This document shows, one piece after another, positions 6,630-55,199 of a DNA stretch of 64,000 nucleotides. Position 1 is the first letter of the stretch, and the number at the start of each line of letters is the position of its first letter. The stretch lies in contig CP084166.1 of NCBI GenBank assembly GCA_021513695.1, positions 2,720,001-2,784,000 on the forward strand. Reading direction: 5' to 3'. Origin of the DNA: Candidatus Heimdallarchaeum aukensis. GTDB lineage: Archaea > Asgardarchaeota > Heimdallarchaeia > Heimdallarchaeales > Heimdallarchaeaceae. A program made the position numbers and the translations under genes. The notes below the pieces were generated by a model that saw only the letters and a program-made list of their open reading frames with translations, had not been told where the DNA came from and made no database searches.

Positions 6630-6920
6630 GGATAGTACCAATTAGAAATTTTAATAGAAACGTAATACTCTCGATTTTTTTGAGAAAAGAGTAATTAAAA
6701 ATTAATGGAAAATGGATAAACTACAGTTTAATAATTAATCCTCTTTTGGTTTTTGTTATTAAAAAGTTTAAACTTATTTAAGCTATTCTCTATTTATATA
6801 GTTGTCATCACCTAATTTTGACAAGGAATCTATAAAAAAAGAAAAAAAAGAAAAAAATTTAGGCGCGAAATAGATAATTTTTGCTAGCTAAAGAAAAAGA
6901 AATAATTAAATTAGAAAAGC

Positions 6921-7552: not shown

Positions 7553-7636
7553 TTTTATTTTTCACTTATTTTTTTATTATACTTCTACATCACGTAAAAT
7601 CTTTGTTACTAAATTAATAACTTAATTCTTTTTTCT

Positions 7637-27297: not shown

Positions 27298-28347
27298 ATG
27301 AGTGTAAGAGCACCGGAAGATATTCTACTAGAAGTAAAAGGCTTAAAAACCTACTTCTTTACAGAAGAAGGAGTAGTGAAAGCTATAGAATCAATTAATT
27401 TTGTTGTTTATAAATCAGAAACATTAGGGCTAGTAGGAGAATCTGGATCTGGAAAAAGTGTAACTGCTCTAAGCATCTTAGGAATAGTACCGGACCCACC
27501 GGGAAAAGTCCTTGAAGGTGAAGTTATTTTCCATGGTCAAGATTTACGTAAATTAAGCCCTGCTGAAATGCGCAAAATCAGAGGAAACCAGATTGCCCAA
27601 GTATTTCAAGATCCAATGACCTCTTTGAACCCTGTTTTCACTGTTGGAGACCAAATCGGAGAAGCTATTATTCTTCATCAACAAGTTTCAAGGAAGGAAG
27701 CTAGAGAAAAAGCTATCAAAATTATGTCTCTTGTTGGTATTCCTTCTGCAGATGAACGTGTTGATAACTATCCCTTTGAGTTCTCAGGAGGTATGCGCCA
27801 AAGAGTTATGATTGCTATGGCTCTCAGTTGTAATCCTGAGCTTCTCATCGCAGACGAACCTACAACAGCTTTAGACGTAACTATTCAAGCTCAAATTCTC
27901 GAGCTTCTAAAAGCAACCAGTGAAGAGTTCGACATGAGTATTATTCTTATTACACATGATATGGGTGTTATTGCAGAGATGTGTGATCGTGTAGCAGTCA
28001 TGTATGCAGGGTATATTGCTGAAGTTAGCGACATAATGACTATTTTCAAGTCTCCTTTGCATCCTTATACCAAAGGTTTGCTCGGAGCTATTCCTCGTCC
28101 TGATGCGAAAAGAGAAGACTTGACGATTATTAGAGGAAGTATTCCTAATCTTATTAATCCTCCATCTGGATGTCGTTTCCATCCTCGATGTGATTACTGG
28201 ATTAAAGGCTTATGTGAAGTGAAAGTTCCTGAGTTTATAGAAATTGAACCAGGACATGAATTAATGTGCCACTTATACACTGAAGAAGGTAAAGCTTATC
28301 TGGAAGCTCACAAAGACCACCCCAGAATATCTTATGCAGCAAAGTAG
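27298..28347 (+). CDS. dppD: ABC peptide transporter ATP-binding protein DppD/OppD type
   Basis: Walker A GESGSGKS, signature FSGGMRQR, Walker [13 protein letters not shown] and the C-terminal oligopeptide-ABC Cys-rich extension. Confidence 0.9.
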
Positions 28348-28358
28348 GTGAATAAAGA

Positions 28359-29564
28359 ATGTCAACACCATCTATTATAGAAAAATTACAAGCAAAAAAA
28401 GGAAAAGATGCAAGAATTAAAACTAAAGAACTCGAGGAAGATGTTGTTCTCGAAGTTGAAAATTTAGCTAAATACTTTAAAATCCCTAATCCTATGGATA
28501 CAACTTGGTTCTTAGTTGCTTTTGTAGCCTCATTAGTAATATTCGCATTTTTCAAAATTATTGGACTTATTCTTATAGGATTGATTATTCTAGCTTATTT
28601 CATTATACCTTATATTCCACCATTCAATAAAAGACCAAAATTTGTTTATCTGAAAGCAGTTGATGGTCTAAACCTTAAAATTAGAAAACAAAAAATTGTA
28701 GGTCTTGTAGGAGAAAGTGGATGTGGAAAGAGTACAGCAGCTAGAACTATTTTACGTCTTCTCGAACCAACCAAAGGTTCTGTTTATTTCAGGGGTATAG
28801 ACATCAACAGATTAACTTCTGATGAATTAAAAGAAATGAGAAGATATATGCAGATAGTGTTTCAAGATCCTTATGCCAGTCTTAACCCAAGAGCAACAGC
28901 TTTTGATATTATATCTGAACCATATATCATTCATGGAGTAGCTTCTGGAGACGAAATAAGTATTAATGTTCTCAGATTGTTAAAGGAAGTAGGATTAGCT
29001 CCTCACCACGCTTACAGATATCCTCATGAGTTCTCTGGTGGTCAAAGACAAAGAATAGGAATTGCTCGTGCTTTAGCTTTAGAGCCTGATTTCATCATCA
29101 TGGACGAACCTGTAAGTAACTTAGACGTTTCTGTAAGAGCAGCAATTATTCAACTAATTCTAAAATTACAACAAAAAATGGGTTTGACTTATCTATTTAT
29201 TGCTCATGATCTTGCACTAGTTCGTATCCTCTGTGATGAAGTAAATGTTATGTATCTCGGAAAACTAATGGAAGCTGGAACAAGCGATGAAATCTTCGAG
29301 GATATGAAGCATCCTTATACAAAAGCTTTAGTTTCTGCAGTTCCAATAGCTGACCCAACAAAAAGATCTAAGAAAATATTCTTACAAGGAGATATTCCTA
29401 CACCAATTAATCCTCCACCAGGTTGCCGTTTCCAAACTCGATGTCCTCTTGTGAGTGACATCTGTCGAGCTGAAGATCCTAAACCTAAATATTTCAGTAA
29501 AACACATGTTGTATATTGCCACAATGTTGAGGGTGGAGAAGATTCTCCAAACGCTTTTGAATAA
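28359..29564 (+). CDS. dppF: ABC peptide transporter ATP-binding protein DppF/OppF type with ~55-aa hydrophobic insertion
   Basis: Walker A GESGCGKST, FSGGQRQR and IIMDEPVSNLD. Residues ~44-97 (TTWFLVAFVASLVIFAFFKIIGLILIGLIILAYFIIPYIPPF) are inserted between the first beta-strand and the P-loop. Confidence 0.85.
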   Translation: MSTPSIIEKLQAKKGKDARIKTKELEEDVVLEVENLAKYFKIPNPMDTTWFLVAFVASLVIFAFFKIIGLILIGLIILAYFIIPYIPPFNKRPKFVYLKAVDGLNLKIRKQKIVGLVGESGCGKSTAARTILRLLEPTKGSVYFRGIDINRLTSDELKEMRRYMQIVFQDPYASLNPRATAFDIISEPYIIHGVASGDEISINVLRLLKEVGLAPHHAYRYPHEFSGGQRQRIGIARALALEPDFIIMDEPVSNLDVSVRAAIIQLILKLQQKMGLTYLFIAHDLALVRILCDEVNVMYLGKLMEAGTSDEIFEDMKHPYTKALVSAVPIADPTKRSKKIFLQGDIPTPINPPPGCRFQTRCPLVSDICRAEDPKPKYFSKTHVVYCHNVEGGEDSPNAFE

Positions 29565-32375: not shown

Positions 32376-33038
32376 TTAAACTAATGAGGTATTTATTAAA
32401 TAAGTAGAGAAAATAGCATTCATTAATTCATTTCTTTCTCTGATTAACTCAGTGATGATTTCTCCAAATCTTTCGTCTCTTATTTCTTCTCTAACTTCAT
32501 TCAACAGTATTTCGTTAAGTCCTTTGTTTAAACATAAAGTTATTTTATTGCATTTATACAAGATTGCTAGTAATAGTTTGGTGTGCATGGTTGCTTTTTT
32601 CGAATTAATTATAGTCTCTTGTAATTGATGCATTAGTTCAATTTTTACGCGTTCTTCTGTACAGAAAATTTTTCTTCTTTTAAAAAATAGAAACCTTTTT
32701 TCAGATTTAGTTAGTATTCCGCTCTTAATCATAACTTCAATAAAAGATTCAAGTATTTGATTTGATTTTATGCCTAATGATCTTATCCAAAACCTAATAT
32801 CGCTTTCATGTTCATTTTGCATTTCTTCAATAATATTCTTAAAAATAGGTTGTGTAGTTTCTGATGAAATAATCTCTATCTTATTATCATCTCTAATTTT
32901 TATTAAGTTTAACATCTCTAAATCGATAATTATAGATGAAGGTAAACCATAAAAAATAAGGTCACTACTACTTTTTTCTATCCTTCCTCTCCTTTGATCA
33001 ATTAACAAGATTATTAACTTCTCTGTTAGTAATAACAT
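32376..33038 (-). CDS. GPP34 (GOLPH3/Vps74-like) family protein
   Basis: The N-terminal LLLTEKLIILLIDQRRGRI...YGLPSSIIIDLEMLNLIKIRDD follows the GPP34 pattern (LxEELLLLALDDxxGK...LAGAxLAELxLxGRI). The FWIRSLG...SGILTKSEKRFLFFKRRKI and LLLAILYKCNKI blocks are also in family order. Confidence 0.45.
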   Translation of the reverse strand: MLLLTEKLIILLIDQRRGRIEKSSSDLIFYGLPSSIIIDLEMLNLIKIRDDNKIEIISSETTQPIFKNIIEEMQNEHESDIRFWIRSLGIKSNQILESFIEVMIKSGILTKSEKRFLFFKRRKIFCTEERVKIELMHQLQETIINSKKATMHTKLLLAILYKCNKITLCLNKGLNEILLNEVREEIRDERFGEIITELIRERNELMNAIFSTYLINTSLV

Positions 33039-33730: not shown

Positions 33731-34762
33731 TTGCTAAGTCTCTTGAATGAAATGAAAAACGAAAGAAAGGTAAAGAAAATGGTTGAATTTTTAAAAGTGA
33801 AAGAAGGTAAAAAGGATAATGTTGATTGGGCTTCATTTCAATCCTCAAAGCGTGAGATAATGAATCTTTATTTTGAAAAGAAGTATGAGGAAGGTTTGAA
33901 GAAGTCCCAACAACTAATAGAAAAATTTCCAGAGTTTCCTGAAACTACATATTTCTACACTGCTTGTTTTTATGGATTATTAAATAAAAGAGAAGAAGCA
34001 CTAAATTCTCTTAAAATGGGTATGGAAAAAGGGGCTTGGTGGACTTCTCAATTTTTAAATTCAGAAACAGATTTGGATCTCTTAAAGGACGACCCTAGAT
34101 TTATTGAACTAGGAAAGAGAGGAGATCAAATATTAAGAGAAGAAGAGACATCACCTGAATTATTAATAAGTTACTCTGATAATTACAACTTAAACGAAGA
34201 GTACATTGTTTTATTAATTTTGCATTGGTTTAGTGGCAATAATCTTGAAACACGTTTCTTTTGGGACACTTTACTTAAACTAAGAAATGACTTAATACTT
34301 TGTTTCTTACAATCCTCTCAAATTTGCGGAAAAAATCGTTATTGTTGGGATAATTGGGCTATGACCAGAAAAGAAGTGCTGAAAGCATACAACTACTTGA
34401 AAACAAATCTTAGAATCAAAGAGACAATTTTAGCAGGAGTATCACAAGGTGCAACAGTTGCATTTAGAATGACATTCAATAATTTTATTCGAGCCGACAG
34501 ATTAATTTTAGTTATACCTTCAATTAAGTCGAAAGAGCAGATTAGCGAAATAATAGAAAATGTAGAACAAGATGTACAGGAGATATCTACACTTATTTTT
34601 GCTGGACAGAAAGATACATTTTATCAAGGAGCTCTTCAACTAGATCAGTATATAAAAGAAAAAAGACTAAAGAGCAAAATTTACTCCTACTCTAATTTAG
34701 GTCATTCAATACCCGAGGATACTATAGAAAAAGTAAATGAATTTATTGAAAAAAATAATTAG
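33731..34762 (+). CDS. alpha/beta-hydrolase-fold esterase with N-terminal helical (TPR-like) region
   Basis: GVSQGA (GxSxG nucleophile elbow) after a beta-strand and a C-terminal LGHSIPED candidate catalytic His. The N-terminal ~150 aa are helical. Confidence 0.5.
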   Translation: MLSLLNEMKNERKVKKMVEFLKVKEGKKDNVDWASFQSSKREIMNLYFEKKYEEGLKKSQQLIEKFPEFPETTYFYTACFYGLLNKREEALNSLKMGMEKGAWWTSQFLNSETDLDLLKDDPRFIELGKRGDQILREEETSPELLISYSDNYNLNEEYIVLLILHWFSGNNLETRFFWDTLLKLRNDLILCFLQSSQICGKNRYCWDNWAMTRKEVLKAYNYLKTNLRIKETILAGVSQGATVAFRMTFNNFIRADRLILVIPSIKSKEQISEIIENVEQDVQEISTLIFAGQKDTFYQGALQLDQYIKEKRLKSKIYSYSNLGHSIPEDTIEKVNEFIEKNN

Positions 34763-34873: not shown

Positions 34874-35464
34874 ATGATTGTTAATGAATATGTTGTGATG
34901 AATTTTTTCCTCGAACAGATGTCTCAAGATAAAATTGCTTTTTTAGCAGATAGTCCAGAGAAAAAAGAAAAAATTCGTGAAAAAATAACTTATTTGACCA
35001 AGTGTAATAATCTTCACGATCAAATATTAGCAGCAAAAAGCCTATGGAAAATGCTCTTTGAGAGTGCAATGAGTTTTATTGATGAAAATAAAAGAGGTTA
35101 TGATGACCTTTTCTCTTACTTTGATGCTTTTGTTAATTTTGAAGAGTTGATTTTTGCTTCAGATTCGTTTTATAGAGATCATACTTTACATAGTCTTTGG
35201 GTTTATTTTCTTGGTGAATATCTATTTAGAGCACAGGAATTTCAACCTCTTTGGACGAATTTTAACTATCCATTCCGTGTTTTACTAAAAGCTCAAAAGA
35301 TTCTTGAACATTTAGATTGTCCTGAGGTTTTTGACACTTATTCAAAAACTCTTGATGCTATCATTCCTTTTATTAATTTTGAAGATTCTATCCGCTGTAT
35401 TGCTCCTCTAACGCATCATTTAAATTCTTTAGTGAAATTATTACTGATATTCCTTTTTTTTTGA
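34874..35464 (+). CDS. hypothetical protein
   Basis: ATG-initiated ORF with non-repetitive composition and no recognisable motifs. Confidence 0.4.
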   Translation: MIVNEYVVMNFFLEQMSQDKIAFLADSPEKKEKIREKITYLTKCNNLHDQILAAKSLWKMLFESAMSFIDENKRGYDDLFSYFDAFVNFEELIFASDSFYRDHTLHSLWVYFLGEYLFRAQEFQPLWTNFNYPFRVLLKAQKILEHLDCPEVFDTYSKTLDAIIPFINFEDSIRCIAPLTHHLNSLVKLLLIFLFF

Positions 35465-35625
35465 ATATTTAGTTTCAATATCTTCAATTTGAAAGATTTT
35501 TTCTATTTTTTCTTTTTATATACTCTTTTTTTGATATTTTTTGAATTATTTGTAAAATCTGCCTATCTCTTCACTGTAACCTTTTAGAGATATTGTTAAC
35601 CCTTCATATCGGAATATTTAAATTT

Positions 35626-36603
35626 ATGAATGTATTTTTTCCCCCCATGTCGGATAAAACTCTATTTAAAAAACAATTATTGTTTAAGTATTTACCTGTA
35701 ACAATTTTACTTATTGTTATTGGTATAATCGAACTTCTTTCTATTCTTTTAAATTTTAACCGCCCACAAGATGCTCCTGAGCTGACATGGTTTTTAATTA
35801 TTATTTTGTTAATCGTAGGTATTACAGCAGGTTTTCTAGGCGGTATTATTGGTACTGGTGGTTGCAGTGTTATGCTTCCAATATTACACTTTTGGTTGGG
35901 TTTCCCTGCTCCACTTGCAGTTGGTACAACATTATTTGCTGTTATTTTTACTGCCATATCTGGTGGGTATGGACACTTAATCCGAAAAAATGTAGATAAA
36001 AGAGCATCCATTATCTTAGGATTATCGGGTATTGCTGGTGTCGCTCTTGGTTCTTGGTTATTTACTATGCTGACTGGAGAAAACACAGTAAGATATTTGA
36101 GTTTGATTCTTGGTATTGTTTTTATATGGCCCGCAATTAGGATGACTTGGGAAGGAATAAGGGGCAAGATAATAGATAAAAAAGGTTCTACGGAAATAAA
36201 AACAGAGACTAAAGAGCAGGTAATTAAAGGATCAGTTAAATGGTTAAGTGTATTTGGTTTTATTATTGGAATAACTACTGGCTTAATTGGTCTTGGAGGT
36301 GGTTATGCTCTTGTTCCTGGACTTATATATCTGTTTGGAGCACCTGTTTATATAACAATGGGTACTTCTTTGGCTATTATGATACCTTTAGCTTTAACTG
36401 GTGGGTTGATTAAATTATTCCAAGGATATGTTGTTCTTGACGCCGCTCTGCTTCTTGCAGCAGGAACAATTATTGGTGCTCAAATAGGTTCTGCTGTGAT
36501 TAAAAAATTCAGACCTTATTACTTGAAGCTCATATTTGGTCTGTATTTTGTTTACGTTTCATTAAAGTTCATATTCTGCTTTTTTGGTTTGAGAATATGG
36601 TAA
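35626..36603 (+). CDS. TauE/SafE (DUF81) family sulfite/sulfo-compound exporter
   Basis: Two 4-TM halves, each with G-rich motifs (GFLGGIIGTGGCSVMLPIL and LIGLGGGYALVPGLIYLF). The track start is TTG 35593; candidate ATG starts are 35626 or 35647. Confidence 0.7.
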   Translation: MNVFFPPMSDKTLFKKQLLFKYLPVTILLIVIGIIELLSILLNFNRPQDAPELTWFLIIILLIVGITAGFLGGIIGTGGCSVMLPILHFWLGFPAPLAVGTTLFAVIFTAISGGYGHLIRKNVDKRASIILGLSGIAGVALGSWLFTMLTGENTVRYLSLILGIVFIWPAIRMTWEGIRGKIIDKKGSTEIKTETKEQVIKGSVKWLSVFGFIIGITTGLIGLGGGYALVPGLIYLFGAPVYITMGTSLAIMIPLALTGGLIKLFQGYVVLDAALLLAAGTIIGAQIGSAVIKKFRPYYLKLIFGLYFVYVSLKFIFCFFGLRIW

Positions 36604-36855
36604 AAATTAATCAAAATTTAAATATTCTTTTTTTTCTTTTCATTAATAATAATTAAAATGATTAACAGTGTATTTTTGAGTTGAAAAATTACTAAATATC
36701 TGATTATTTAACGTTTTTAACGATTATACATTTTTAGGTACGCTGCAGGTTCTTTTTCTCATTATCAATTAGAATCTCAAAATTTTTTTGTAATTATTAA
36801 GTTGATGAAATAGTTTAATAGAAAAAGGATTCGAATATACTATAAAAATTGATTT

Positions 36856-37977
36856 TCACATTTTCTTTTGGCCATCTATTAACATAAGTACACTTTGTTC
36901 TTTGGGTTTTTCATAGCCCCATTTGTTAATAAATTGCTTCCAACGAGAGTAGATCTTTAATTTATCTGCTTCTGATATTCGATATGAACCTGGTTTGTAA
37001 TCTTTTGTTTTTTCTAAATATTTGTCAAACATGGGTTTAGCATCGTTAAATCCTGGTAAAGATAAATCTTGATAAATTCCTTCTAATACTTTAATCGGAT
37101 TCTTTACAAATTCTTCGTATCTAATTTCAACATAGTTCTCTTTAGGTATTAAATCTAAATCTTGGTAAAACTTGTTGTACATCTGCTCAAAGTTTGATAG
37201 AACGAACTCATCTAGGTCTTCTTCTCTTTCTTGTAATTGAAGCAAACTAATAAGTTTCTTGTGCATTCTTTTTGTTGAAAAGAAAACTTTGTATGGATCT
37301 CTAATTATATGGATAAATTTAGCTTTAGGAAAAAGTTCTGTTAGCAAATCTACCCTTGCAGTATCAATTGGACTTTTCATTACTAGTGTTTTATCTTGCT
37401 TCTTAATTTCTAGTTTTTTGATCAAATAAAGAATACTTCTTTTTAGTTTTCTTTTCTCTTTTTTTGAGACATTCTTGAAAGTTACATACCTGTTGTAATA
37501 GTCTTGATTAGTTGGAAAATAAGCTCCGGTATAAGGAGACATTGTACAAAGATTAGCTATCGCGAAATCATGTTCACTTGGAGAATCAGCTTTAATTTTC
37601 ATATTATCTTGCGGTCTTTTTTCAGGTAAAAATAAAGATAAAAGCCAATTAAAGAAACGAGAAAAACCTAGAAAATAATAGGGAAAGACACTTTCAGTTA
37701 AAGTTATGAATTCGTGTTGGGGGTCACTTACTAATAATTCGTGCAAAAATGTAGTCCCTGTTCTCCAATGACCTAGTATAAAAATTGGTTGTTTCTTTAT
37801 TTTATGCTTAGATATTTTGCGATCAAAAAGAATCTTTTCTATGAGTATTAAAGGACTAAAAATAAATGTAAGAAAAGTTATAATTATTGCTCTTAAGCTG
37901 TATTTCCATGAGATTTTAAATCTATTTTCAAAAAGCAATTTCATCCATTTAGCAAAACTAGTTCCAACTACAAACAT
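36856..37977 (-). CDS. membrane-anchored sulfotransferase (PAPS-dependent family), paralogue 1
   Basis: 5'-PSB P-loop ILGHWRTGTTFLHELL and the 3'-PB region IHIIRDPYKVFFS. An N-terminal hydrophobic segment (AIIITFLTFIFSPLILIEKILF) precedes the catalytic domain. Confidence 0.75.
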   Translation of the reverse strand: MFVVGTSFAKWMKLLFENRFKISWKYSLRAIIITFLTFIFSPLILIEKILFDRKISKHKIKKQPIFILGHWRTGTTFLHELLVSDPQHEFITLTESVFPYYFLGFSRFFNWLLSLFLPEKRPQDNMKIKADSPSEHDFAIANLCTMSPYTGAYFPTNQDYYNRYVTFKNVSKKEKRKLKRSILYLIKKLEIKKQDKTLVMKSPIDTARVDLLTELFPKAKFIHIIRDPYKVFFSTKRMHKKLISLLQLQEREEDLDEFVLSNFEQMYNKFYQDLDLIPKENYVEIRYEEFVKNPIKVLEGIYQDLSLPGFNDAKPMFDKYLEKTKDYKPGSYRISEADKLKIYSRWKQFINKWGYEKPKEQSVLMLIDGQKKM

Positions 37978-38163: not shown

Positions 38164-39039
38164 CTAATCTCTAAGTGAAAATTTGCAGTTAGTGTCTCCT
38201 TTTGCTCTACATTCTGTCTCGCTTACATTTATTTTAGGGTTGTTTAATGCACCCTCAATGAAACCTGTAAAAAAGTCGCACATTGGTTCATCTGATGAGT
38301 AACCTCTACATATTGGGCAGAGTTTCATTACAAATTGATTGTTTTTTTCATCGAAGTCTACTACTGAAATTTCGGATAGCAAATTATAAACATCTTTAGG
38401 GCTAATTACAAGTTTCTTTGAGTAATTTTTTTTAGCTAGCTTATAGCCAAAATATTTTCCAATAGATTCTAGCACATTTTTCTTTATATTTTCATCGTAC
38501 TTAGAATATAGTTCTCTTGCTAACTTTACTGTTCGTTCAGGATAATCATCTAGTAAACCCTTCTCCAGTTCTACTGATTCGAGTAATATAGTTAATGGTA
38601 AATTAGGATCAAAGATATTAAAAAATTCAGGGTTGGTTTGATAAAGATGATATAATTGGTCGTATAATTTTTGAGCCTTTACACCAAAAGTCTCAAAAAT
38701 AGATTTTTCAATATAAGTAATATCTTGGGTTTCAAAGAAATATGAAAAATCTTTCAAAAATTCAATTTCTATTTGCTTAACAAGAAATTGCCCCAACTTT
38801 ACATCTTCTTTTTCAAAGGCATGAACAACAAAAATCAATCCATGCTTTGATGAATAAATGAGGGTTCCATCTTCTGTTTGAATAGCGTAAAGGTTTGAAT
38901 GACCTAATTCTTTTAAGAATAGATCGATTGCACTAGAAACGCCAGCAAAAAGAATTTCATCAATATCTTGTTTTTTGTCAATTGAGAATTTGAATACTGG
39001 TAACCCTGTTAAATGAAAGATGTAAACAGCTTTAATCAT
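38164..39039 (-). CDS. longin-like N-terminal domain plus C-terminal V4R domain protein (TRAPP Bet3/Trs-like)
   Basis: The C-terminal CPICRGY...CDFFTGFIEGALNN...ETECRAKGDTNCKFSL matches the V4R consensus (C..C...G..xG....ETxCxAxGxxxCxF). The N-terminal ~120 aa (MIKAVYIFHLTGLPVFKFS...) have a roadblock/longin-like pattern. Confidence 0.5.
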   Translation of the reverse strand: MIKAVYIFHLTGLPVFKFSIDKKQDIDEILFAGVSSAIDLFLKELGHSNLYAIQTEDGTLIYSSKHGLIFVVHAFEKEDVKLGQFLVKQIEIEFLKDFSYFFETQDITYIEKSIFETFGVKAQKLYDQLYHLYQTNPEFFNIFDPNLPLTILLESVELEKGLLDDYPERTVKLARELYSKYDENIKKNVLESIGKYFGYKLAKKNYSKKLVISPKDVYNLLSEISVVDFDEKNNQFVMKLCPICRGYSSDEPMCDFFTGFIEGALNNPKINVSETECRAKGDTNCKFSLRD

Positions 39040-40110: not shown

Positions 40111-40194
40111 ACAAAATAAGAATAATTGTGAATAGAATGATGAAAACGGAAAGAAATTCTGACTTCTTCTATAATTTATTTTTTGGTGATAACA

Positions 40195-40728
40195 ATGGTT
40201 AATGTTTATGCAATTGACTATATCATTATGGCTGTGCTTATTATAATAAGCGCAATAATGGCTCTAGAAGCAAGAGAAATAGTCTATGCAATTTTTTTCT
40301 TTGACCTGTTTACAATAGGCATTGGAGGAATGTTTCTTTTATTCAACGCTGGTTATGTGGCAATGTTTCAGTTGGCAGTCTATGCTGGTGCTGTGGCAGT
40401 AACAGTGTTGTTTGCAGTAATGCTTACAAGACGAACTGCGACAGGAAAAGAAATTATCTCTTTTGCATCAATACGAAATAAAATTGCAAGTCTTGTTTTA
40501 GCTCTCAGCATTGCAGCATTAATGCTTATTCTAGTTTCGAGATATGATTGGGCTACTCCTGCTGGTGATTATCCTGATCCATTAGGTGGTGGAGCGATAT
40601 TTACAAGTATAGTTACGAACTATGTTGTACCTTTTCTAGGAATTAGTCTAATTCTTGCTGCTTCTTTGGTAGGAAGCGTTGCATTGCTAAGAGAAGAGAG
40701 AAGTAAAAAGGAGGTTGCCAGTAAATGA
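40195..40728 (+). CDS. nuoJ: complex I subunit J (ND6-like)
   Basis: YAGAVAVTVLFAVMLT and the NuoJ TM pattern. The track start at 40183 is TTG; the likely start is ATG 40195, 5 nt after GGTGA. Confidence 0.8.
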   Translation: MVNVYAIDYIIMAVLIIISAIMALEAREIVYAIFFFDLFTIGIGGMFLLFNAGYVAMFQLAVYAGAVAVTVLFAVMLTRRTATGKEIISFASIRNKIASLVLALSIAALMLILVSRYDWATPAGDYPDPLGGGAIFTSIVTNYVVPFLGISLILAASLVGSVALLREERSKKEVASK

Positions 40729-41087
40729 CAGCAGTTCCAACAGAGTGGACAGTTTATTTGTCAGTAGTAATTTTGTCGATAGGTCTCTATGGTATTTTTA
40801 CTAGACGAAGTATGATACGCATTCTCCTTGGAGTAGAATTAATTTTAGGTGCAGCGACGCTGAATTTTATTGTATTTTCAATGTCTGTGCTAAATGGAGA
40901 TGTAGTAGGTCACATTCTGACCTTATTCGTTATAGCTCTAGCTGCAGCTGAAACAATTATCGGGTTAATCTTGCTTATTATGCTTTACAAAGATGTTGGC
41001 TCTATTGACATTTCTTTAGCAAGTGATGTAAAAGCGGAAGAGCAAGATGAAAATAAATTAACAAGAGGTGAAAAAGAAGATGGGTAA
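40725..41087 (+). CDS. nuoK: complex I subunit K (ND4L-like)
   Basis: LSIGLYGIFTRRSMIRILLGVELILGAATLNF is typical of NuoK. Its ATGA start overlaps the nuoJ stop. Confidence 0.85.
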   Translation: MTAVPTEWTVYLSVVILSIGLYGIFTRRSMIRILLGVELILGAATLNFIVFSMSVLNGDVVGHILTLFVIALAAAETIIGLILLIMLYKDVGSIDISLASDVKAEEQDENKLTRGEKEDG

Positions 41088-41580
41088 ATTTGCAGATTTT
41101 TTTAAGAAATGGGCTCGTAGTTCCTCTATTTGGCCCGTCAGATATTGTGTAGCCTGCTGTTCTACAGAAATGGCGGCAGCAATGGCTTCAAGATTTGATA
41201 TGGAACGTTATGGTGTGATGCCAGTTTGGGGACCTCGTCAAGCTGATTTTCTCATGATTGGTGGAATTGTTACTAAAAAAGCAGCAACAAGAATAAAAAC
41301 AATTTATGAGCAAATGCCTGAACCGAAGTATGTACTAGCTTTAGGTGCTTGTACAAGTGGTGGAGGACCTTATTATGATAGTTACAATGCAGTTCAAGAT
41401 GTAAGTGAGATTGTTCCTATTGATGTATATGTTCCTGGTTGCCCTCCTAGACCAGAAGCAATCCTAAGAGGAATTGAGATGATACAAGAAATGATTAAGA
41501 AAGGAATTAGAGCTGATGCTCCTCTACAAGTCGATGAAAAGACCAAATTGAAGGAGGTTCTAAAGTCATATGAACGTTGA
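41080..41580 (+). CDS. nuoB: complex I subunit B (PSST, N2 cluster)
   Basis: The CCSTEM, GACTSGGGPY and VPGCPP cysteine motifs. The track start at 41068 is GTG; the likely start is ATG 41080 after GAGGTGA. Confidence 0.9.
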   Translation: MGKFADFFKKWARSSSIWPVRYCVACCSTEMAAAMASRFDMERYGVMPVWGPRQADFLMIGGIVTKKAATRIKTIYEQMPEPKYVLALGACTSGGGPYYDSYNAVQDVSEIVPIDVYVPGCPPRPEAILRGIEMIQEMIKKGIRADAPLQVDEKTKLKEVLKSYER

Positions 41581-42040
41581 AGAGTTAAAAAAGAAGTTTC
41601 TAGACAATATAAAAACGGCTCAAGAAGAGAAAATTCAAGATAATCAGATTTTTATTAAAATCGACAAAGAGGATATCAAAACTGTTTCTAAATTTATCAA
41701 GGAGCAATTTGATGACGTAAATAAAATACTAGAGCAAGTTTTTGCTATAGATTTTCCTGATAGAAATGAAATGGAAATGATTTACACCTGGTGGTTTATC
41801 GAATATCATGCCTTAGTTCATTTTCGTGTAATCTTACCATATGATGATCTGAAAGTTGTATCTATTCAAGATGATTGGGTCGCTGCTAATTGGCATGAGC
41901 GAGAAACTTGGGAAATGTTTGGGATAGATTTTGAAGGACATCCAAACTTAAAGCAATTTTTGCTCTCAGACGAACTTTTCGGTAAACATCCTATGAGGAA
42001 ATCTTTCAAAATTGAGCATAATCCGGAGGAAGCAAAATGA
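41570..42040 (+). CDS. nuoC: complex I subunit C (30 kDa)
   Basis: NuoC-like length and conserved WHERETWEMFGIDFEGHPNL block. AGGAGGT upstream. Confidence 0.8.
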   Translation: MNVEELKKKFLDNIKTAQEEKIQDNQIFIKIDKEDIKTVSKFIKEQFDDVNKILEQVFAIDFPDRNEMEMIYTWWFIEYHALVHFRVILPYDDLKVVSIQDDWVAANWHERETWEMFGIDFEGHPNLKQFLLSDELFGKHPMRKSFKIEHNPEEAK

Positions 42041-43152
42041 CAGAAAATAAAGAAAGAAGTTCAAGTTTAGTTTCTTTTAGCTATGGTCCTCAACATCCTG
42101 GAACACATCCTTATTCCTTACTTTTAACTGTTGATGGAGATCGAATAGAAAAAGTAGAAGCACAGATTGGTTATGTTCATAGAGGATTAGCTAAACAAGC
42201 TGAATCAAGAACATTTATCCAAGCTTTACCAATAATGGAAAGATCTTGTTTCATTGATTCAGTTAACCATCAATTTGGTTATGTCATGGCAGTGGAAAAA
42301 TTAGCCGGTATAGAAGTACCAGAAAGAGCAGAATACCTTAGAGTTATTGCTGCTGAATTATCACGCATGAACTCTTTGATAAGCTGGTTTGGTGGTTACG
42401 CAGCTGAAACTGGAATTAACTCAGCTTTCATGTGGGCTTGGAAAGATAGAGAAATGTTTCTTGACCTATTTGGCCATCTTGCAGGAAGCAGAGTTTCTGT
42501 AATGTACTTAACTATCGGAGGAGTTAGGTGGGATTGGAATGATAAGCTAACCAATTTAACTTGGGAAATTATTGATTATATGGAAGAGAGACTAAAAATA
42601 CACAAAAAGCTGGTTATGAAGAATTCAATATTCAAAAAACGAACTAAAGGTGTAGGAGTCGTTTCAAAAGAGAAAGCACTAGAATATGCATTTACAGGGC
42701 CTAACTTAAGAGCTTCAGGAGTACAAGGCGATATTAGAATTTTAGAACCCTATAGTGTTTATGATCATTTCAAATTTACTCCTAAAGTAATGACTGAGGG
42801 AGATAACTGGGCTAGAACCATGATTCGTCTACACGATATTGAAACTAGTATGGAGATTCTAAAACAAGCTCTTCCAGAGATTCCCGAAGGAGAATACAAG
42901 ACTAAAGTTCCTCTAAAATTAAGAGCTAATGCTGGCGAGGCATATGCAAGAGTAGAGTTGTCTAGAGGAGTCATGGGTTATTATATTAGAACAGTGGAGG
43001 ACAAATCAACAAAACCCTATAGAGTTAAAATAAGAGGACCTTCATTCTCACACTTCCAAATTGTAGAAGATATTCTAGTTGGAACACATATGGCTGATAT
43101 TCCAATAATCAAAGGTTCTCTAGATGTATGTCCAGCAGATTTAGATAGATAA
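42037..43152 (+). CDS. nuoD: complex I subunit D (49 kDa), no NiFe-binding cysteines
   Basis: SFSYGPQHPGTHPYSLLLTVDGDRI and the RGxEK-like core. The N- and C-termini lack the RxCGxC and DPCxxC motifs of hydrogenase large subunits. Confidence 0.85.
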   Translation: MTENKERSSSLVSFSYGPQHPGTHPYSLLLTVDGDRIEKVEAQIGYVHRGLAKQAESRTFIQALPIMERSCFIDSVNHQFGYVMAVEKLAGIEVPERAEYLRVIAAELSRMNSLISWFGGYAAETGINSAFMWAWKDREMFLDLFGHLAGSRVSVMYLTIGGVRWDWNDKLTNLTWEIIDYMEERLKIHKKLVMKNSIFKKRTKGVGVVSKEKALEYAFTGPNLRASGVQGDIRILEPYSVYDHFKFTPKVMTEGDNWARTMIRLHDIETSMEILKQALPEIPEGEYKTKVPLKLRANAGEAYARVELSRGVMGYYIRTVEDKSTKPYRVKIRGPSFSHFQIVEDILVGTHMADIPIIKGSLDVCPADLDR

Positions 43153-43165
43153 GAAGGTGAAAGTA

Positions 43166-44140
43166 ATGAATACAGATTTTCTATTTATAAAAGTCGCAGT
43201 ATTTCCTGGTGTCCTTTTCGTACTATTTGGATGTCTTTATTTGATGTATTTCGAAAGGAAAACAATAGCGAGAATTCATGGAAGAATAGGGCCACAATAT
43301 GTAGGCTATGGAGGTTTGTTACAAACAATAGCTGATCTAATGAAATTAATGTTTAAGGAATGGATATTCCCAAAAACAGCAAAGAAAGCAGCTCTATTTC
43401 TAACCCCTATTGCTCTATTTCTACTTGCTTTTCTACCCCTATCGGTTGTTCCATGGGGAGAAAATTGGTATGTAGCAGATTTCAGTGTTACATTGATCTT
43501 TGCATTTGTGGTTATAGCTGCTATTCCTTTCTTAAGCCTTCTACTTGGTTGGTCCTCAGGAAGTAAATATTCTTTGATAGGCGGATACAGAGCTGCATCA
43601 CAACAAATTGTGTTTGAGGTTCCTTTATTTCTTTCTGCATTAACTCCTGCTATACTTGCAAATAGTTTGAGTTTAATGGATATTACAAAAAATCAGAAAA
43701 TATGGTTCCTTGTACTGAATCCAATCGCTGCTTTCGTCTTTTTCGTTTCTATGCTTGCAATGATGGAAAGACAACCTTTTGATATTCCTGAAGCAGAATC
43801 CGAATTAGTATTTGGTTGGAAAACAGAGTTAAGTGGTATTTTCTTTGGTTGGTCAATATTCGCTGGTTACACTATTATGATCGGAGGAAGTGCTCTATTT
43901 GTTGTTTTATTCATGGGTGGTTTTAACGGGCCAGGAAATAATTTAGGTGTCCTATGGTTTATGCTCAAACTAGCTTTGATATGGCTTATTCTTTTCGCTA
44001 TGAGAGCAGTTTTACCAAGATATAGAATGGATCAGATACTAAGAATGTCTTGGAGGTTGATGATACCACTTTCTTTGGTCAGTATTGGCTTATCAATCGG
44101 GTTACTATTTGCATTCCCCAATTTCTTCAGAGGTGTATAA
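43166..44140 (+). CDS. nuoH: complex I subunit H (ND1-like)
   Basis: The ERKTIARIHGRIGPQYVGYGGLLQTIADLMKL region and eight TM helices. The track start at 43157 is GTG; the likely start is ATG 43166 after AAGGTGA. Confidence 0.85.
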   Translation: MNTDFLFIKVAVFPGVLFVLFGCLYLMYFERKTIARIHGRIGPQYVGYGGLLQTIADLMKLMFKEWIFPKTAKKAALFLTPIALFLLAFLPLSVVPWGENWYVADFSVTLIFAFVVIAAIPFLSLLLGWSSGSKYSLIGGYRAASQQIVFEVPLFLSALTPAILANSLSLMDITKNQKIWFLVLNPIAAFVFFVSMLAMMERQPFDIPEAESELVFGWKTELSGIFFGWSIFAGYTIMIGGSALFVVLFMGGFNGPGNNLGVLWFMLKLALIWLILFAMRAVLPRYRMDQILRMSWRLMIPLSLVSIGLSIGLLFAFPNFFRGV

Positions 44141-44183
44141 TTTGGCAGATAAAAACTTTCTAACTAACATAAGATCGTTATAC

Positions 44184-44627
44184 ATGGCTATTGCACAGAT
44201 GTTCAAGAAACCATTCACAACAAAGTATCACACAACAAACAAAGAAAGAATAGTGGAATACGACAGATTGCGTGGAGAACTTATAATGAACTTACCCAAA
44301 TGTGTGGGTTGTACACTATGTGTTCAAGCTTGTCCTAATGCTGCATTGAAAATGGTTTCATATGACAATGGAAATCCAAGAAACAAAAAGAAACATGTTC
44401 CTTCTTTTAATTTAGGACTCTGCAGTTTTTGCGCTTTATGTGTAGAAGCTTGTCCTTATGATGTCCTAGAAATGGGTAAAGTGTACGATAGAGCCTATGC
44501 CACTATGGAAGATATGCTTCGTTCTCCTGAGGAGATGTATGAGGATTGGATTGAACAGAAAGGAGAAGAAGATGAAATAGATCCTGAAGAAATTGAAACT
44601 GACAAAATCGATATCGAGGAGGATTAA
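44184..44627 (+). CDS. nuoI: complex I subunit I (2x[4Fe-4S] ferredoxin-type)
   Basis: CVGCTLCVQACP and CSFCALCVEACP. The track start at 44085 overlaps nuoH; ATG 44184 avoids the overlap. An acidic C-terminal tail. Confidence 0.8.
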   Translation: MAIAQMFKKPFTTKYHTTNKERIVEYDRLRGELIMNLPKCVGCTLCVQACPNAALKMVSYDNGNPRNKKKHVPSFNLGLCSFCALCVEACPYDVLEMGKVYDRAYATMEDMLRSPEEMYEDWIEQKGEEDEIDPEEIETDKIDIEED

Positions 44628-44628
44628 A

Positions 44629-46086
44629 ATGGTTGTTAGTACAGTTTTGTTATTAATTTCTATAATAGCTCCTTTAGTTATAGGATTCTTATTATTCATT
44701 CCATTCCTTCAAAAATATGCAGGGTGGATAACAGCTGGAGTATCTACTGTCGTTTTAGCCTTCTTAATTACTGCTTCTGTTCCAATATGGAACAGTTCTG
44801 TAACAAAAGTGGAACTCCAATGGGCTCCAGCAGCTGGTCTGTTAATGGGATTCTTGTTGGACAATCTATCAGCACTTATTGCATTATTGATAGCAGTTGT
44901 TTCTACCTTAACAGCTTTCTATTCCATAAAATATATGGAGCATGAAGAGAGAAAAGGATTATACTTTAGCTTATACAACTTCTTCTTTGCAGGTATGCTC
45001 GGAGTAGTTCTATCTACAAACCTCCTAGAGTTTTTCTTCTTCTGGGAACTTATGCTAATTCCTAGTTACTTAATGATTGTTTATTGGGGTACTAAAGCTA
45101 AAGCAGCAAAAGTTGCATTGAAGTATTTCTTCTATACTCAAGTGGGTTCTATTGGAATAATTGTTAGTTTTGCAATTATTGCCTTTTATGGTAACAGTTT
45201 AAACATTGCAGAAATTGCAACTAATCTCTCAATATCTTCACTTCCAAATGCTATACTCTACTTAACCTTTATACTACTGATGATAGGTTTAGCTGTAAAA
45301 CTCGCTATCTTTCCTTTCCAAAATTGGTTACCTGATGCTCACGGAGAAGCTCCAACACCAATAAGTGTATTGCTCTCTGCAGTTATGATCGAAACAGCAG
45401 CTTATGCAATAGTTCGTATTGCTATGCAATTTTATGGAGAGATTTTCGAAACATCTAGGATTGTCTTTGAGAGTGTAGGAGTATTTACCCTCTTGTATGG
45501 AGGCTTCTTAGCTTTAAGGCAAACAGATGTTAAAAGACTACTCGCTTATTCTTCTGTAAGCCAAATGGGTTATGTCTTTATTGGTTTATCAACATACAAC
45601 CAATTTGGTGTTTCAGGAGGATTATTCCACATATTAGCTCATGGATTTGGAAAAGGGATACTCTTCATGACTGCAGGAATTCTCATACATGAAGTGAAAA
45701 CTAGAGATATTACTGCAATGGGTGGATTAGGTAGAAAAATGCCTTTCACTGCTATAATTTCATTTATTGCAGCATTAAATCTCGCTGGAACACCCCCACT
45801 AAGTGGATTCTTCAGTGAATGGTTTATCTTTAGTGGCGCATTCTATCAAGCAACAACAGAGTTTGTAATTCTAGGTATTTTTCTATTACTAGGTTCAATA
45901 TTAAGCGCAGCTTATATGCTACGTTTTCTGTGGAAAGTGTTCCTTGGTCCTTTACCAGGAGAACTAGAAAAGACAAAAGAAACAAAGCTATTACTTTGGG
46001 TTCCAGGAGCGATTTTAGCACTATTGGCTATATTCTTCGGTATCTTTGCTAATGTTGCAATTGAACTTTTCAGTACAGTGATTTGA
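44629..46086 (+). CDS. additional antiporter-like subunit, NuoM/ND4-like (or MrpD-like)
   Basis: WLPDAHGEAPTPISVLLSAVMIETAAYAIVRI is a NuoM-type motif. The ATG at 44629 directly follows the nuoI stop, and GAGGAGGA lies upstream. Confidence 0.75.
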   Translation: MVVSTVLLLISIIAPLVIGFLLFIPFLQKYAGWITAGVSTVVLAFLITASVPIWNSSVTKVELQWAPAAGLLMGFLLDNLSALIALLIAVVSTLTAFYSIKYMEHEERKGLYFSLYNFFFAGMLGVVLSTNLLEFFFFWELMLIPSYLMIVYWGTKAKAAKVALKYFFYTQVGSIGIIVSFAIIAFYGNSLNIAEIATNLSISSLPNAILYLTFILLMIGLAVKLAIFPFQNWLPDAHGEAPTPISVLLSAVMIETAAYAIVRIAMQFYGEIFETSRIVFESVGVFTLLYGGFLALRQTDVKRLLAYSSVSQMGYVFIGLSTYNQFGVSGGLFHILAHGFGKGILFMTAGILIHEVKTRDITAMGGLGRKMPFTAIISFIAALNLAGTPPLSGFFSEWFIFSGAFYQATTEFVILGIFLLLGSILSAAYMLRFLWKVFLGPLPGELEKTKETKLLLWVPGAILALLAIFFGIFANVAIELFSTVI

Positions 46087-46095
46087 GGTGAAAAA

Positions 46096-48126: not shown

Positions 48127-48135
48127 GGTGAAAAA

Positions 48136-49605
48136 ATGATAGGAATATTAACTACTTTAATAACTGTTCCCCTTATAGGAGCAATAATTGTGTTCTTGAT
48201 TGGAACAAAAAATAAAAAACTTTCAAGACTTTTAGCTCAATTTATAACATTTGCTGAGTTATCAATCTCTTGGAGTTTATTCGCTTTCTATGATAGAATT
48301 AATAAAAGGCTCAATATTGAGGATGAATTTGTACGATGGATAGATTCTTTTTCTATTCATTTTTCGCTCAGCATTGATGGAATAAGCTTTGTGCTAGTAC
48401 TACTCTCAACTACCATCGTATTTCTAGTTGCTCTCCAATCTACATTCGTAATAGAAGAAAATGAACATTTATACTATACTTTGCTTTTACTATTTGAGAC
48501 AGGAATTTTAGGAGTCTTCTTGGCTTCAAACTTAATAATATTCTACATTTTCTGGGAATTAGTTTTAGTTCCAATGTTCTTTCTTATAGGTGAATGGGGT
48601 GGAGAAAGAAAACGTTATGCTGCAGTCAAGTTCTTCATATTTACACATGTAGGAAGCTTGTTTATGCTACTAAGTTTTCTGTATCTATTCATTAACATGA
48701 AAACATTTAGTATTATAGAGTTAAGTCAAAAGGATATACCTGAAATTGTTCAAACCATTGCAGCAATCGGTATCTTCCTTGGAGTGGCAGTAAAACTACC
48801 CGCTGTTCCAATACATTCATGGTTACCTGATGCACATGTAGAAGCTCCAAGTCCAGTAAGTGTATTACTCGCAGGTCTATTGCTAAAAATGGCAGGATAT
48901 GGTTTTCTTAAACTAGGATTGAATATTGTCCCAGAAGGAATAAAAGTCCTGCGTCCTGTTCTTATAACCTTAGGTGTAGTTGGAGCTTTTTATGCTGCTT
49001 TTGCTGCTATAGCACAAAAGGATCTCAAGAGAGTTATTGCTTTTACTTCAATTAATCACATGAGTTTTATCATGATCGCAGTAGCAGTTGCAACACCCCT
49101 TGCAATTATTGGAGCAGTATTTCAAATGATAAGCCATGGAATAATCATAGGGCTAATGTTCTTCCTCTCTGGTATAATACAACACCATGTAGGAACCAGA
49201 GAAATAAACTTACTTGGAGGAATAAAAAAGAAACCTGTTTTAACTGGTTTCTTAATTGTTGGCTCTATAGCTGCATTTGGCGCTCCTCCAATGAGTGGAT
49301 TCATTGCAGAAATGATGATATTCTTTGCTTCGATTCCAGTATATCCTTGGGTAATGACTGTGGCTGCTTTCTCAATCGTAATAACCTCTGTTATTTACCT
49401 TTGGTTACTAACTAGAGTACTATTTACTAATAAAGCAGAAGAAGTAGTTTTTGAGGACCTAGTATCTCATCAGAACTACTTAAAATATGAATTATCAATA
49501 GTTGGTCTCTTATTTATACCTATATTCGTTCTTGGATTCTTTCCAAATTTGTTAGTATCAATTATTGAACAAGCTGTGAACCAGCTTCTTAAAATAATAG
49601 GGTGA
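48136..49605 (+). CDS. nuoM: complex I subunit M (ND4-like)
   Basis: WLPDAHVEAPSPVSVLLAGLLLKMAGYGFLK. GAGGTGAAAAAATG start context. Confidence 0.85.
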   Translation: MIGILTTLITVPLIGAIIVFLIGTKNKKLSRLLAQFITFAELSISWSLFAFYDRINKRLNIEDEFVRWIDSFSIHFSLSIDGISFVLVLLSTTIVFLVALQSTFVIEENEHLYYTLLLLFETGILGVFLASNLIIFYIFWELVLVPMFFLIGEWGGERKRYAAVKFFIFTHVGSLFMLLSFLYLFINMKTFSIIELSQKDIPEIVQTIAAIGIFLGVAVKLPAVPIHSWLPDAHVEAPSPVSVLLAGLLLKMAGYGFLKLGLNIVPEGIKVLRPVLITLGVVGAFYAAFAAIAQKDLKRVIAFTSINHMSFIMIAVAVATPLAIIGAVFQMISHGIIIGLMFFLSGIIQHHVGTREINLLGGIKKKPVLTGFLIVGSIAAFGAPPMSGFIAEMMIFFASIPVYPWVMTVAAFSIVITSVIYLWLLTRVLFTNKAEEVVFEDLVSHQNYLKYELSIVGLLFIPIFVLGFFPNLLVSIIEQAVNQLLKIIG

Positions 49606-49610
49606 AAAAA

Positions 49611-51041: not shown

Positions 51042-51054
51042 AGGTGAAAAAAAG

Positions 51055-54062: not shown

Positions 54063-55199
54063 TTAGTTACTGGTACTAGAAGGTTCTATTTTTTCATATC
54101 CCCAATGATCTCTGTAGTCTGACCAGTATTTATTCACTCTTTCTATCACATCATCTGTTATTTTGTGTACATTAGGTTTATATTCTCTTTTTTGTGTTTC
54201 TGCATATTTTCTCATGTTTTCTCTATATTCTTCTTTTAGCTCTAAACCAAGCTCTGAGTATATTCTATCAATATGTTTCATTGGTTCCTCAATGAATTCT
54301 TCATATTTTACATGTACAATATTACCTTCAGGAATAAGTTTGATATCTCGTTCTAGATATTCATAAAGAGTTTTGTAGTTGCGTAGAATATCCAATTTCA
54401 TTTTTTCATCATCCCAAGTTTGTAAGGTATAAATTGCAAAAACTTCATCAAAGAACTTGTATGTACTAGGATAAACTTCATAGGGATTTCTATAAGTATG
54501 AATGAATTTTGCGTTAGGAAACATTTCTAGAATATGAGGAATTCGATAACTATTAGTGGGATTTTTAAAAATCATCTGTCTTCCTTCATATTTTAAGGTC
54601 ATTTTCTGAACAAAGTAGTAATAGATTTTTTTCCATTTCTCCAGATCCTTGGGTAAACCCTCAAAAGTCAAGTAACGAGTATATTGGTCAAAATTTCTTG
54701 GAAAAATAAATCCATTATAATAACCATATTTAGACATAGCTCCAATTGAGTACTCTTCTTCTGTTGGTTCTTCTGCTCCCATCGGAACGTTATCCATTGG
54801 TCTTACATCTGGCAAAGACATATCAATCAGTGCTTTAGTAATTTTAGGGAATGAAAGGAAGAAGTGTGGAGCATAACCCTCTAAGTTTGAAACATAACCT
54901 CTATCTTTATCCATAGATAATAAAGTCATTAGGTATGTTGTTCCAGTCCTATAATGACCAATTACAAAAATTGGGTCGGTTTTTATTTCTGTTTTCTTTA
55001 TTTTTCTATGATATAAAATTCTCTCTATAACCCTCATTGGAGCAGTAATTGTAGCTAGACCAATCGCATACCAGAATCTCAAATAATATTTGGGGTGAAT
55101 CCTGAATTTATTTTCCCATAGCAATCGAAAAATATTTGTAAAAGACATTCCAGCCAAAGGCTCTTCTTTGCAAATCAACCAAGTTTTTTTGTGTGCCAT
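54063..55199 (-). CDS. membrane-anchored sulfotransferase (PAPS-dependent family), paralogue 2
   Basis: VIGHYRTGTTYLMTLL and IHTYRNPYEVYPS. It aligns along its full length with the 36856..37977 product, including the N-terminal hydrophobic segment. The track start at 55238 is GTG; the nearest ATG is 55199. Confidence 0.75.
   Translation of the reverse strand: MAHKKTWLICKEEPLAGMSFTNIFRLLWENKFRIHPKYYLRFWYAIGLATITAPMRVIERILYHRKIKKTEIKTDPIFVIGHYRTGTTYLMTLLSMDKDRGYVSNLEGYAPHFFLSFPKITKALIDMSLPDVRPMDNVPMGAEEPTEEEYSIGAMSKYGYYNGFIFPRNFDQYTRYLTFEGLPKDLEKWKKIYYYFVQKMTLKYEGRQMIFKNPTNSYRIPHILEMFPNAKFIHTYRNPYEVYPSTYKFFDEVFAIYTLQTWDDEKMKLDILRNYKTLYEYLERDIKLIPEGNIVHVKYEEFIEEPMKHIDRIYSELGLELKEEYRENMRKYAETQKREYKPNVHKITDDVIERVNKYWSDYRDHWGYEKIEPSSTSN

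Follow-up and report, generated by a model that had tools for sequence, protein, structure and literature searches.

Two bacterial-type PAPS sulfotransferases in Candidatus Heimdallarchaeum aukensis: a conserved N-terminal helical subdomain in place of a Golgi-like membrane anchor

Two sulfotransferases, ST1 and ST2, are encoded in a 64,000-nucleotide stretch of the genome of Candidatus Heimdallarchaeum aukensis (contig CP084166.1, positions 2,720,001 to 2,784,000; the window in the following). Their closest fold and profile matches are the mycobacterial enzymes Stf1 (PDB 2zq5) and Stf9 (PDB 2z6v). Common to all four is a helical N-terminal extension ahead of the 5'-phosphosulfate-binding (5'-PSB) loop for the cofactor 3'-phosphoadenosine-5'-phosphosulfate (PAPS), but the identity is only 15-17 %, the extension does not align and profile matches cover the sequence only from about position 68 onwards. 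To our knowledge, the acceptors of Stf1 and Stf9 have not been established. The acceptor of Stf3 (Rv2267c), the omega-hydroxy-beta-dihydromenaquinone-9 sulfotransferase (EC 2.8.2.40), is a lipophilic isoprenoid: in the cyp128-stf3 operon of Mycobacterium tuberculosis, CYP128 hydroxylates menaquinone-9 and Stf3 then sulfates the product (PMC7404182). The type II membrane proteins of the Golgi, i.e., the tyrosylprotein sulfotransferases TPST1/2, the heparan sulfate enzymes NDST and 3-OST and the CHST carbohydrate sulfotransferases, are far more distant from ST1 and ST2 than the bacterial relatives, and unlike them the archaeal proteins have neither a stem nor a variable signal-anchor, while the evidence on orientation points to the cytoplasm. 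The sulfotransferase domains of CurM and the olefin synthases (PDB 4gbm, 4gox) are embedded in polyketide synthases and lack the N-terminal helical subdomain. Archaeal N-glycans can be sulfated; none of the archaeal sulfotransferases has been characterised (PMC11625862). A literature search combining Heimdallarchaeota and sulfotransferase gave no match.

ST1 and ST2 belong, as new members, to a known and widespread family of bacterial-type PAPS sulfotransferases. The genes and their cofactor-binding motifs, including the 3'-phosphate-binding (3'-PB) motif, are located as follows:

36856..37977, minus strand: ST1, PAPS-type sulfotransferase of 373 amino acids, member of a clade of Heimdallarchaeia only
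54063..55199, minus strand: ST2, paralogous PAPS-type sulfotransferase of 378 amino acids (PF13469, 109.8 bits, E 3.1e-31, cut-off 27)
37744..37788, minus strand: 5'-PSB loop of ST1, PIFILGHWRTGTTFL, residues 64-78, with P64, F66, G69, H70, R72 and G74 invariant
37276..37317, minus strand: 3'-PB motif of ST1, FIHIIRDPYKVFFS, residues 221-234, with R226, P228 and S234 invariant
54930..54974, minus strand: 5'-PSB loop of ST2, PIFVIGHYRTGTTYL, motif located in the sequence
54465..54506, minus strand: 3'-PB motif of ST2, FIHTYRNPYEVYPS, motif located in the sequence

An earlier note on this DNA had reported two genes with sulfotransferase domains and both cofactor motifs, and Pfam as well as the motif columns bear this out. 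ST1 matched Sulfotransfer_3 (PF13469) with 117.5 bits (E 1e-33) at a gathering cut-off of 27. Both proteins have the sulfotransferase alpha/beta fold and share 35 % identity over the full length, including the N-terminal region; the start codon of ST2, ATG at 55199, agrees with the gene call in a 92 %-identical strain. The cofactor-binding motifs are intact. The 5'-PSB core of ST1 reads GHWRTGTT, that of ST2 GHYRTGTT; the 3'-PB motifs are IIRDPYKVFFS and TYRNPYEVYPS, i.e., RDPY...S and RNPY...S, respectively. Among 54 homologues, R72, G74, T75 and T76 were invariant or nearly so, and R72, G74, R226 and S234 were without any variation. A PAPS-dependent sulfotransferase activity is predicted for both proteins. 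NCBIfam provided no equivalog for ST1 or ST2, only a sub-threshold match to NoeE (E 0.005). Weak profile matches to the phage protein Ocr/gp0.3 (E ~4e-4) were taken as compositional noise of an acidic helical stretch.

Among named homologues of the query sulfotransferase, the closest were affiliated to 'Candidatus Heimdallarchaeaceae'. Homologues with a full-length N-terminal segment were present in at least 600 prokaryotic species of a genome collection, with alignments beginning at query residue 2-5; among them were Planctomycetota, Hydrogenedentota, Bacteroidota, Rhodobacteraceae, Clostridia, Calditrichia, Thermoplasmatota, Loki- and Odinarchaeota. Members of the family are frequent in Asgard archaea and in Thermoplasmatota. 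In a neighbour-joining tree, which carries no support values, ST1 was placed inside a clade of Heimdall sequences only, and ST2 together with another Heimdall and one Promethearchaeati sequence near Clostridia and Thermoplasmatota. By this tree, the two either are paralogues of long standing or were acquired separately, in a family that comprises archaea and bacteria side by side. The kinship to CHST and TPST enzymes implied by the earlier note was not recovered: the nearest enzymes are the bacterial Stf1 and Stf9, and a profile of the Heimdall clade had no special affinity to TPST, with 23.9 bits for TPST1 and 58 bits for Stf1, compared to 20.2 and 78.8 bits obtained with the bacterial profile.

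In bacteria and archaea alike, the family architecture includes a conserved subdomain of two helices, formed by the N-terminal ~60 residues. Hydropathy is given below as KD19, the Kyte-Doolittle value in a 19-residue window, for which 1.6 is the usual threshold of a transmembrane (TM) segment.

37789..37977, minus strand: conserved N-terminal helical subdomain of ST1, residues 1-63, with helix 8-17 and long helix 24-57 in the AlphaFold2 model
37840..37896, minus strand: hydrophobic stretch of ST1, LRAIIITFLTFIFSPLILI, candidate membrane-interacting segment, residues 28-46, KD19 = 2.32
55026..55082, minus strand: counterpart of this stretch in ST2, LRFWYAIGLATITAPMRVI, not TM-grade, KD19 = 1.09, within helix 36-69 of the AlphaFold2 model

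Within residues 1-63, G5, W11, L15, N18, F20, [IV]22, S23, I33, T34, E47, R53 and I55 are conserved across the family. The AlphaFold2 models (predicted local distance difference test, pLDDT, 95.1 for ST1 and 92.8 for ST2; predicted template modelling score, pTM, 0.92 for both) start with a short helix, followed by a helix of 34 residues that stops about seven residues short of strand beta-1 and the PAPS loop; no stem region is present in either protein. Since a pTM of 0.92 was reached, whereas unplaced residues would limit it to ~0.85, the N-terminal ~60 residues are considered to be confidently placed. ST2 has the same arrangement despite a helix that is not TM-grade, which speaks for the helix as a structural element of the fold. 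The earlier view that prokaryotic sulfotransferases seldom have such a segment does not hold for this family, in view of the species count given above.

The earlier note had assigned one N-terminal TM segment to each protein, which holds for the hydropathy of ST1, but not for ST2 with its value below the threshold. Simple sums on the Hessa biological scale were ~0 kcal/mol for ST1, a borderline case, and 6.9 kcal/mol for ST2. One face of the helix is polar in ST2 and most bacterial members (S32, T34, S37, N40, S41, R/A44). The Heimdall ST1 clade has hydrophobic residues at positions 37, 40 and 44, and an invariant proline, P42, in the middle of the segment. All 15 sequences of this clade were TM-grade (KD at least 1.6; median 2.33, every sequence at least 1.9). 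The frequencies elsewhere were 3/19 in Thermoplasmatota, 3/7 in Loki- and Odinarchaeota, 9/30 in Planctomycetota and 3/18 in other bacteria. The uniformly hydrophobic N-terminal helix is the sole distinctive trait of the Heimdall ST1 clade, and the hydropathy supports the suggestion that the helix of ST1 is able to contact a membrane.

The flanks of the ST1 helix carry charges of +4/-1 on the N-terminal side (15 residues) and +7/-2 on the C-terminal side (residues 47-63), a pattern that holds across the clade. With the C-terminal flank being more positive, the positive-inside rule speaks for a C-terminal domain in the cytoplasm, opposite to that of a type II protein, and a translocation of the conserved basic N-tail is unlikely. 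N-X-S/T sequons are rare in the catalytic domains, one in ST1 and none in ST2, with one cysteine in each; a probable surface protein of 980 amino acids encoded in the same window has 3.06 sequons per 100 amino acids. PAPS is a cytoplasmic metabolite, and we know of no prokaryotic route for its export and of no extracytoplasmic PAPS supply. Taken together, the flank charges, the paucity of sequons and cysteines and the cytoplasmic cofactor make a cytoplasmic location of both catalytic domains most likely.

The genes around ST1 had been interpreted as parts of a sulfation module with an exporter. The transporter gene is the following:

35593..36603, plus strand: TauE/SafE (TSUP-family) membrane transporter (PF01925, 160.8 bits, cut-off 32.6, E 5.8e-47)

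Coordinates and the Pfam match agree with the description of this gene as convergent with ST1; the spacer has 252 nt. A V4R-domain gene (38164-39039, minus strand; V4R E 1e-13) had been described as a longin-V4R gene following ST1. Its strand, shared with ST1, and its V4R domain were found as described, but it is located upstream of ST1 and a longin domain in its N-terminal part had no Pfam support. A GPP34 gene (32376-33038, minus strand; Pfam E 2e-18) is present in the window as stated. In the locus of the 92 %-identical strain, L005, the order tm109, tm119, V4R, ST1 and convergent TauE is kept. The contig of a more distant relative, L001, with a 74 %-identical ST1 orthologue, shares no neighbour of that set and lacks GPP34. 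In relatives with 51-57 % identity (P0005, P0012) the sulfotransferase genes are paired in tandem, with an ABC-2 exporter and a TrmB regulator beside them, and there is no adjoining TauE. Searches by tblastn with TauE, V4R, GPP34, radical-SAM, tm120, DUF498 and MFS sequences within 7 kb of the sulfotransferase detected none of them in 80 loci of the genome collection. Counts of Pfam families among two neighbours per side revealed no dominant partner and no enrichment of PAPS-pathway, glycosyltransferase or TauE families; FlhB was enriched (6), probably due to planctomycete synteny. TSUP genes occur ubiquitously and in multiple copies, without an assigned function; the family includes sulfite exporters and a sulfate importer (PMC5840216). 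The proposed TauE-coupled module is not supported: the genes are convergent, and their adjacency is shared only with the closest strain. TauE, V4R and GPP34 are neighbours of ST1 through local synteny only and no functional unit.

The central loop of TauE (36150-36230) contains a TETK-type repeat (KTETKEQ), which is length-variable and expanded to (TETK)n in L005 (~9830-9980). Two tblastn pieces had suggested a TauE pseudogene in L005; this was rejected, as a scaffold gap (run of N) lies inside the repeat. In several Heimdallarchaeia two tandem genes of the ST1 clade are accompanied by an ABC-2 exporter (ATPase and permease) and TrmB (L003 8001-10174; L006 6977-9131; L010 7001-9216). Sulfation followed by export is more plausible for this tandem arrangement than for the TauE arrangement, but the tandem is not present in the window. 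In L001 the ST1 orthologue is divergent from a gene of the Inositol_P family (7037-7963, minus strand), with CysQ as best NCBIfam match (152 bits) and HisN at 141 bits. The encoded protein would possibly be a product-removing partner of the sulfotransferase, i.e., a PAP phosphatase. The CysQ-like seed was found by tblastn in 1 of the 80 loci.

Some hints to the acceptor come from other members of the family. Two bacterial homologues (P0082, P0087), ~35-38 % identical to ST1, bear the label Stf3 as KEGG Orthology (KO) assignment from JGI. In four loci of Pseudomonadota a cytochrome P450 with the heme motif FGxGxHRCxG is located directly downstream of the sulfotransferase in the same direction, resembling the cyp128-stf3 operon (PMC7404182). 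These pairs (L045:7001-9363, L052:7001-9348, L056:7001-9327, L074:7001-9324) were observed in a Rhodobacteraceae bacterium, Paracoccus xiamenensis, a Pseudomonadota metagenome-assembled genome (MAG) and Szabonella alba. A convergent UbiA prenyltransferase gene adjoins the sulfotransferase in three loci of Thermoplasmatota (L036:8118-8960, L038:3625-4455, L040:8081-8941), and bacterial neighbours include HMG-CoA reductase (3) and polyprenyl synthetase (1). By analogy, these neighbours hint at lipophilic acceptors of the isoprenoid type. No P450, and with it no cyp128-like partner of ST1 and ST2, was detected among the window's open reading frames (ORFs) scanned; men or futalosine genes did not turn up in the window scans, although no search was aimed at menaquinone genes. 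As sulfated N-glycans exist in archaea and the archaeal sulfotransferases are uncharacterised, a dolichol-linked glycan on the cytoplasmic face is a further possible acceptor. A sulfation of surface glycans would be possible only by such a lipid-linked route on the cytoplasmic face.

We consider it moderately probable that ST1 and ST2, two anciently diverged members of one prokaryotic family, are cytoplasm-facing, possibly membrane-interfacial enzymes, with ST1 sulfating a lipophilic acceptor and ST2 being more peripheral. The catalytic domain would face the cytoplasm, the site of PAPS synthesis. The long N-terminal helix, leading without a stem into the PAPS loop, may be part of the acceptor site, of an interfacial surface for membrane contact, or of both. 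In the Heimdall ST1 clade, the change of the polar helix face at positions 37, 40 and 44 to hydrophobic residues probably created a monotopic tether or a marginal span on the cytoplasmic face. The acceptor of ST1 would be lipophilic and embedded in the membrane, e.g., a hydroxylated isoprenoid or quinone as for Stf3, a glycolipid or a dolichol-phosphate-linked glycan. For ST2 the amphipathic helix suggests a rather peripheral or soluble enzyme, probably with a different acceptor. Several observations weigh against these assignments. Besides the missing support values of the tree, the placement of the N-terminal subdomain would follow from the pTM and not from contacts between helix and domain, and ST1 may have a true span, either N-out/C-in or N-in/C-out. 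The Stf3 label is a KO assignment to homologues only ~35 % identical to ST1, not a direct comparison with Rv2267c. The P450, UbiA and isoprenoid neighbours are few, phylogenetically clustered, limited to bacteria and Thermoplasmatota, and none is located beside ST1 or ST2. The neighbourhoods of the archaeal members are otherwise heterogeneous, and the CysQ-like match in L001 falls under the NCBIfam cut-off of 228.8 bits. Genes for sat, cysC, cysH and cysQ were looked for in the window and were not present; on the supporting side, Sat, CysC and CysH are reported to be widely distributed in MAGs of cold-seep Heimdallarchaeia (PMC11193907).

A different reading is that of the earlier note: ST1 and ST2 as type II proteins (N-in/C-out) similar to Golgi CHST and TPST enzymes, with external catalysis on surface glycans or proteins in a module with the TauE exporter. 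If true, a lumenal sulfation of the Golgi kind in an Asgard archaeon would matter for how the eukaryotic secretory pathway arose. The TM-grade helix near the N-terminus of ST1, the sequon-rich surface protein and the GPP34- and Arf-type genes of the window as well as the known sulfated N-glycans of archaea (PMC11625862) are in line with this proposal. But the helix of ST2 is not TM-grade, and the segment is a conserved subdomain common to hundreds of bacteria rather than a variable signal-anchor, running straight into the beta-strand and the PAPS loop. An external catalytic domain is further opposed by the more positive C-terminal flank, by the near absence of sequons and the single cysteine, and by the lack of any extracytoplasmic PAPS supply known to us in prokaryotes. 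The Heimdall clade is no nearer to TPST than the bacterial members, and the convergent TauE is not conserved beside the sulfotransferase. The type II model is already largely refuted and retains a very small probability. Overall, the observations of the earlier note were partly confirmed and are right in their descriptive core; its interpretation was partly supported and mostly failed. The evidence removes the Golgi-style reading: the enzymes are of a bacterial type widespread in prokaryotes, the supposed 'anchor' belongs to the conserved make-up of the enzyme, and the transporter is incidental.

A cytoplasmic catalytic domain is shared by two further explanations. ST1 and ST2 may be ordinary soluble enzymes with the helix buried in the core packing or in a dimer interface, acting on small soluble metabolites or intermediates of secondary metabolism. 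In favour of this, Stf1 and Stf9, which have helical N-terminal extensions of ~90-100 residues, were soluble proteins when crystallised, the helix is not TM-grade in most family members and is confidently placed by AlphaFold2, and the neighbourhoods are heterogeneous. However, a helix face that is polar in the relatives and hydrophobic in 15 of 15 ST1-clade sequences is hard to explain for a surface that the relatives expose to solvent, and the P450, UbiA and isoprenoid neighbours suggest lipophilic acceptors; a soluble nature of both enzymes is regarded as doubtful. Alternatively, ST1 could be a single-span protein with the N-terminus outside and the catalytic domain inside (type III-like), modifying dolichol-phosphate oligosaccharides before flipping, so that sulfate would appear on surface N-glycans. 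In Halobacterium, sulfation takes place at the dolichol-linked stage. The TM-grade hydropathy and the more positive C-terminal flank of ST1 are consistent with such a topology, as are the archaeal sulfated N-glycans and uncharacterised archaeal sulfotransferases (PMC11625862), but the 27-residue N-tail, with charges of +5/-1 and the conserved W11, N18 and F20, is unfavourable for translocation and unexpected outside of the cell. The Hessa-type sum of only ~0 and the invariant proline in the middle of the segment argue against a span, and no glycosylation genes are located nearby. This topology is quite improbable.

The interfacial, cytoplasm-facing arrangement of ST1 and ST2 is preferred to these alternatives, and the hydrophobic helix of the ST1 clade would fit a tighter association with the cytoplasmic side of the membrane and a lipid-like acceptor. 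A more far-reaching version is tentative: the ST1 clade would have converted the family-wide amphipathic helix into a membrane-inserting one, representing the first identified archaeal membrane-interfacial sulfotransferase, active on isoprenoid lipids, quinones or dolichol-phosphate-linked glycans at the cytoplasmic face. If true, such an enzyme would be a source of sulfated lipids or of sulfated surface glycans in those archaea that are closest to eukaryotes. Its fully hydrophobic helix makes the ST1 clade a reasonable candidate in the search for enzymes that sulfate archaeal lipids or glycans.

The window has a GC content of ~0.30 and contains Arf, GPP34, TBP and SNAP-like genes. The sequon-rich protein is encoded as follows:

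24079-27021, minus strand: ORF of 980 amino acids without a Pfam match, with a signal-like N-terminus, a C-terminal TM segment and a KKK tail

The earlier note had listed this ORF as dense in N-glycosylation sequons, and the count agrees: 30 N-X-S/T sequons compare to 12.5 expected by composition. A glycosylated protein of the surface or of the solute-binding type is the probable product. Two ABC ATPase genes of the Opp/Dpp type (27298-29564) are oriented divergently from this ORF. Genes of the eukaryote-signature type comprise a TPR protein with a weak SNAP match (5802-6641, minus strand), an Arf-family GTPase with a C-terminal extension (10864-11844, minus strand), a HEAT-repeat protein of 670 amino acids (17452-19464, plus strand) and the GPP34 and V4R genes described above. 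Between GPP34 and TauE, an alpha/beta-hydrolase gene (33731-34762) and an ORF of 196 amino acids without a Pfam match (34874-35464, plus strand) have no counterpart in L005.

The ST1 and ST2 clusters are separated by an 11-subunit complex-I-like operon of the Nuo/Fpo type (40183-51432, plus strand) with a GC content of 0.36 against ~0.30 in the flanks. In L005 (5385-6523) this block is absent, tm109 abuts an isochorismatase gene and the distance between ST1 and ST2 is ~5 kb; the operon is a recent 11-kb insertion or deletion between close strains. The ST2 orthologue of L005 (2401-3526) is split over two frames and called as proteins of 203 and 177 amino acids, either a frameshift/pseudogene or an assembly error. 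Beside ST2, a radical-SAM gene (53077-54045, plus strand) is convergent and ends 17 nt from the ST2 end; its RlmN/Cfr-like matches were weak (E 2.6e-12, far under the cut-offs). Together with the genes for isochorismatase and a pyridine-nucleotide-disulfide oxidoreductase it forms a conserved trio, also present in L005.

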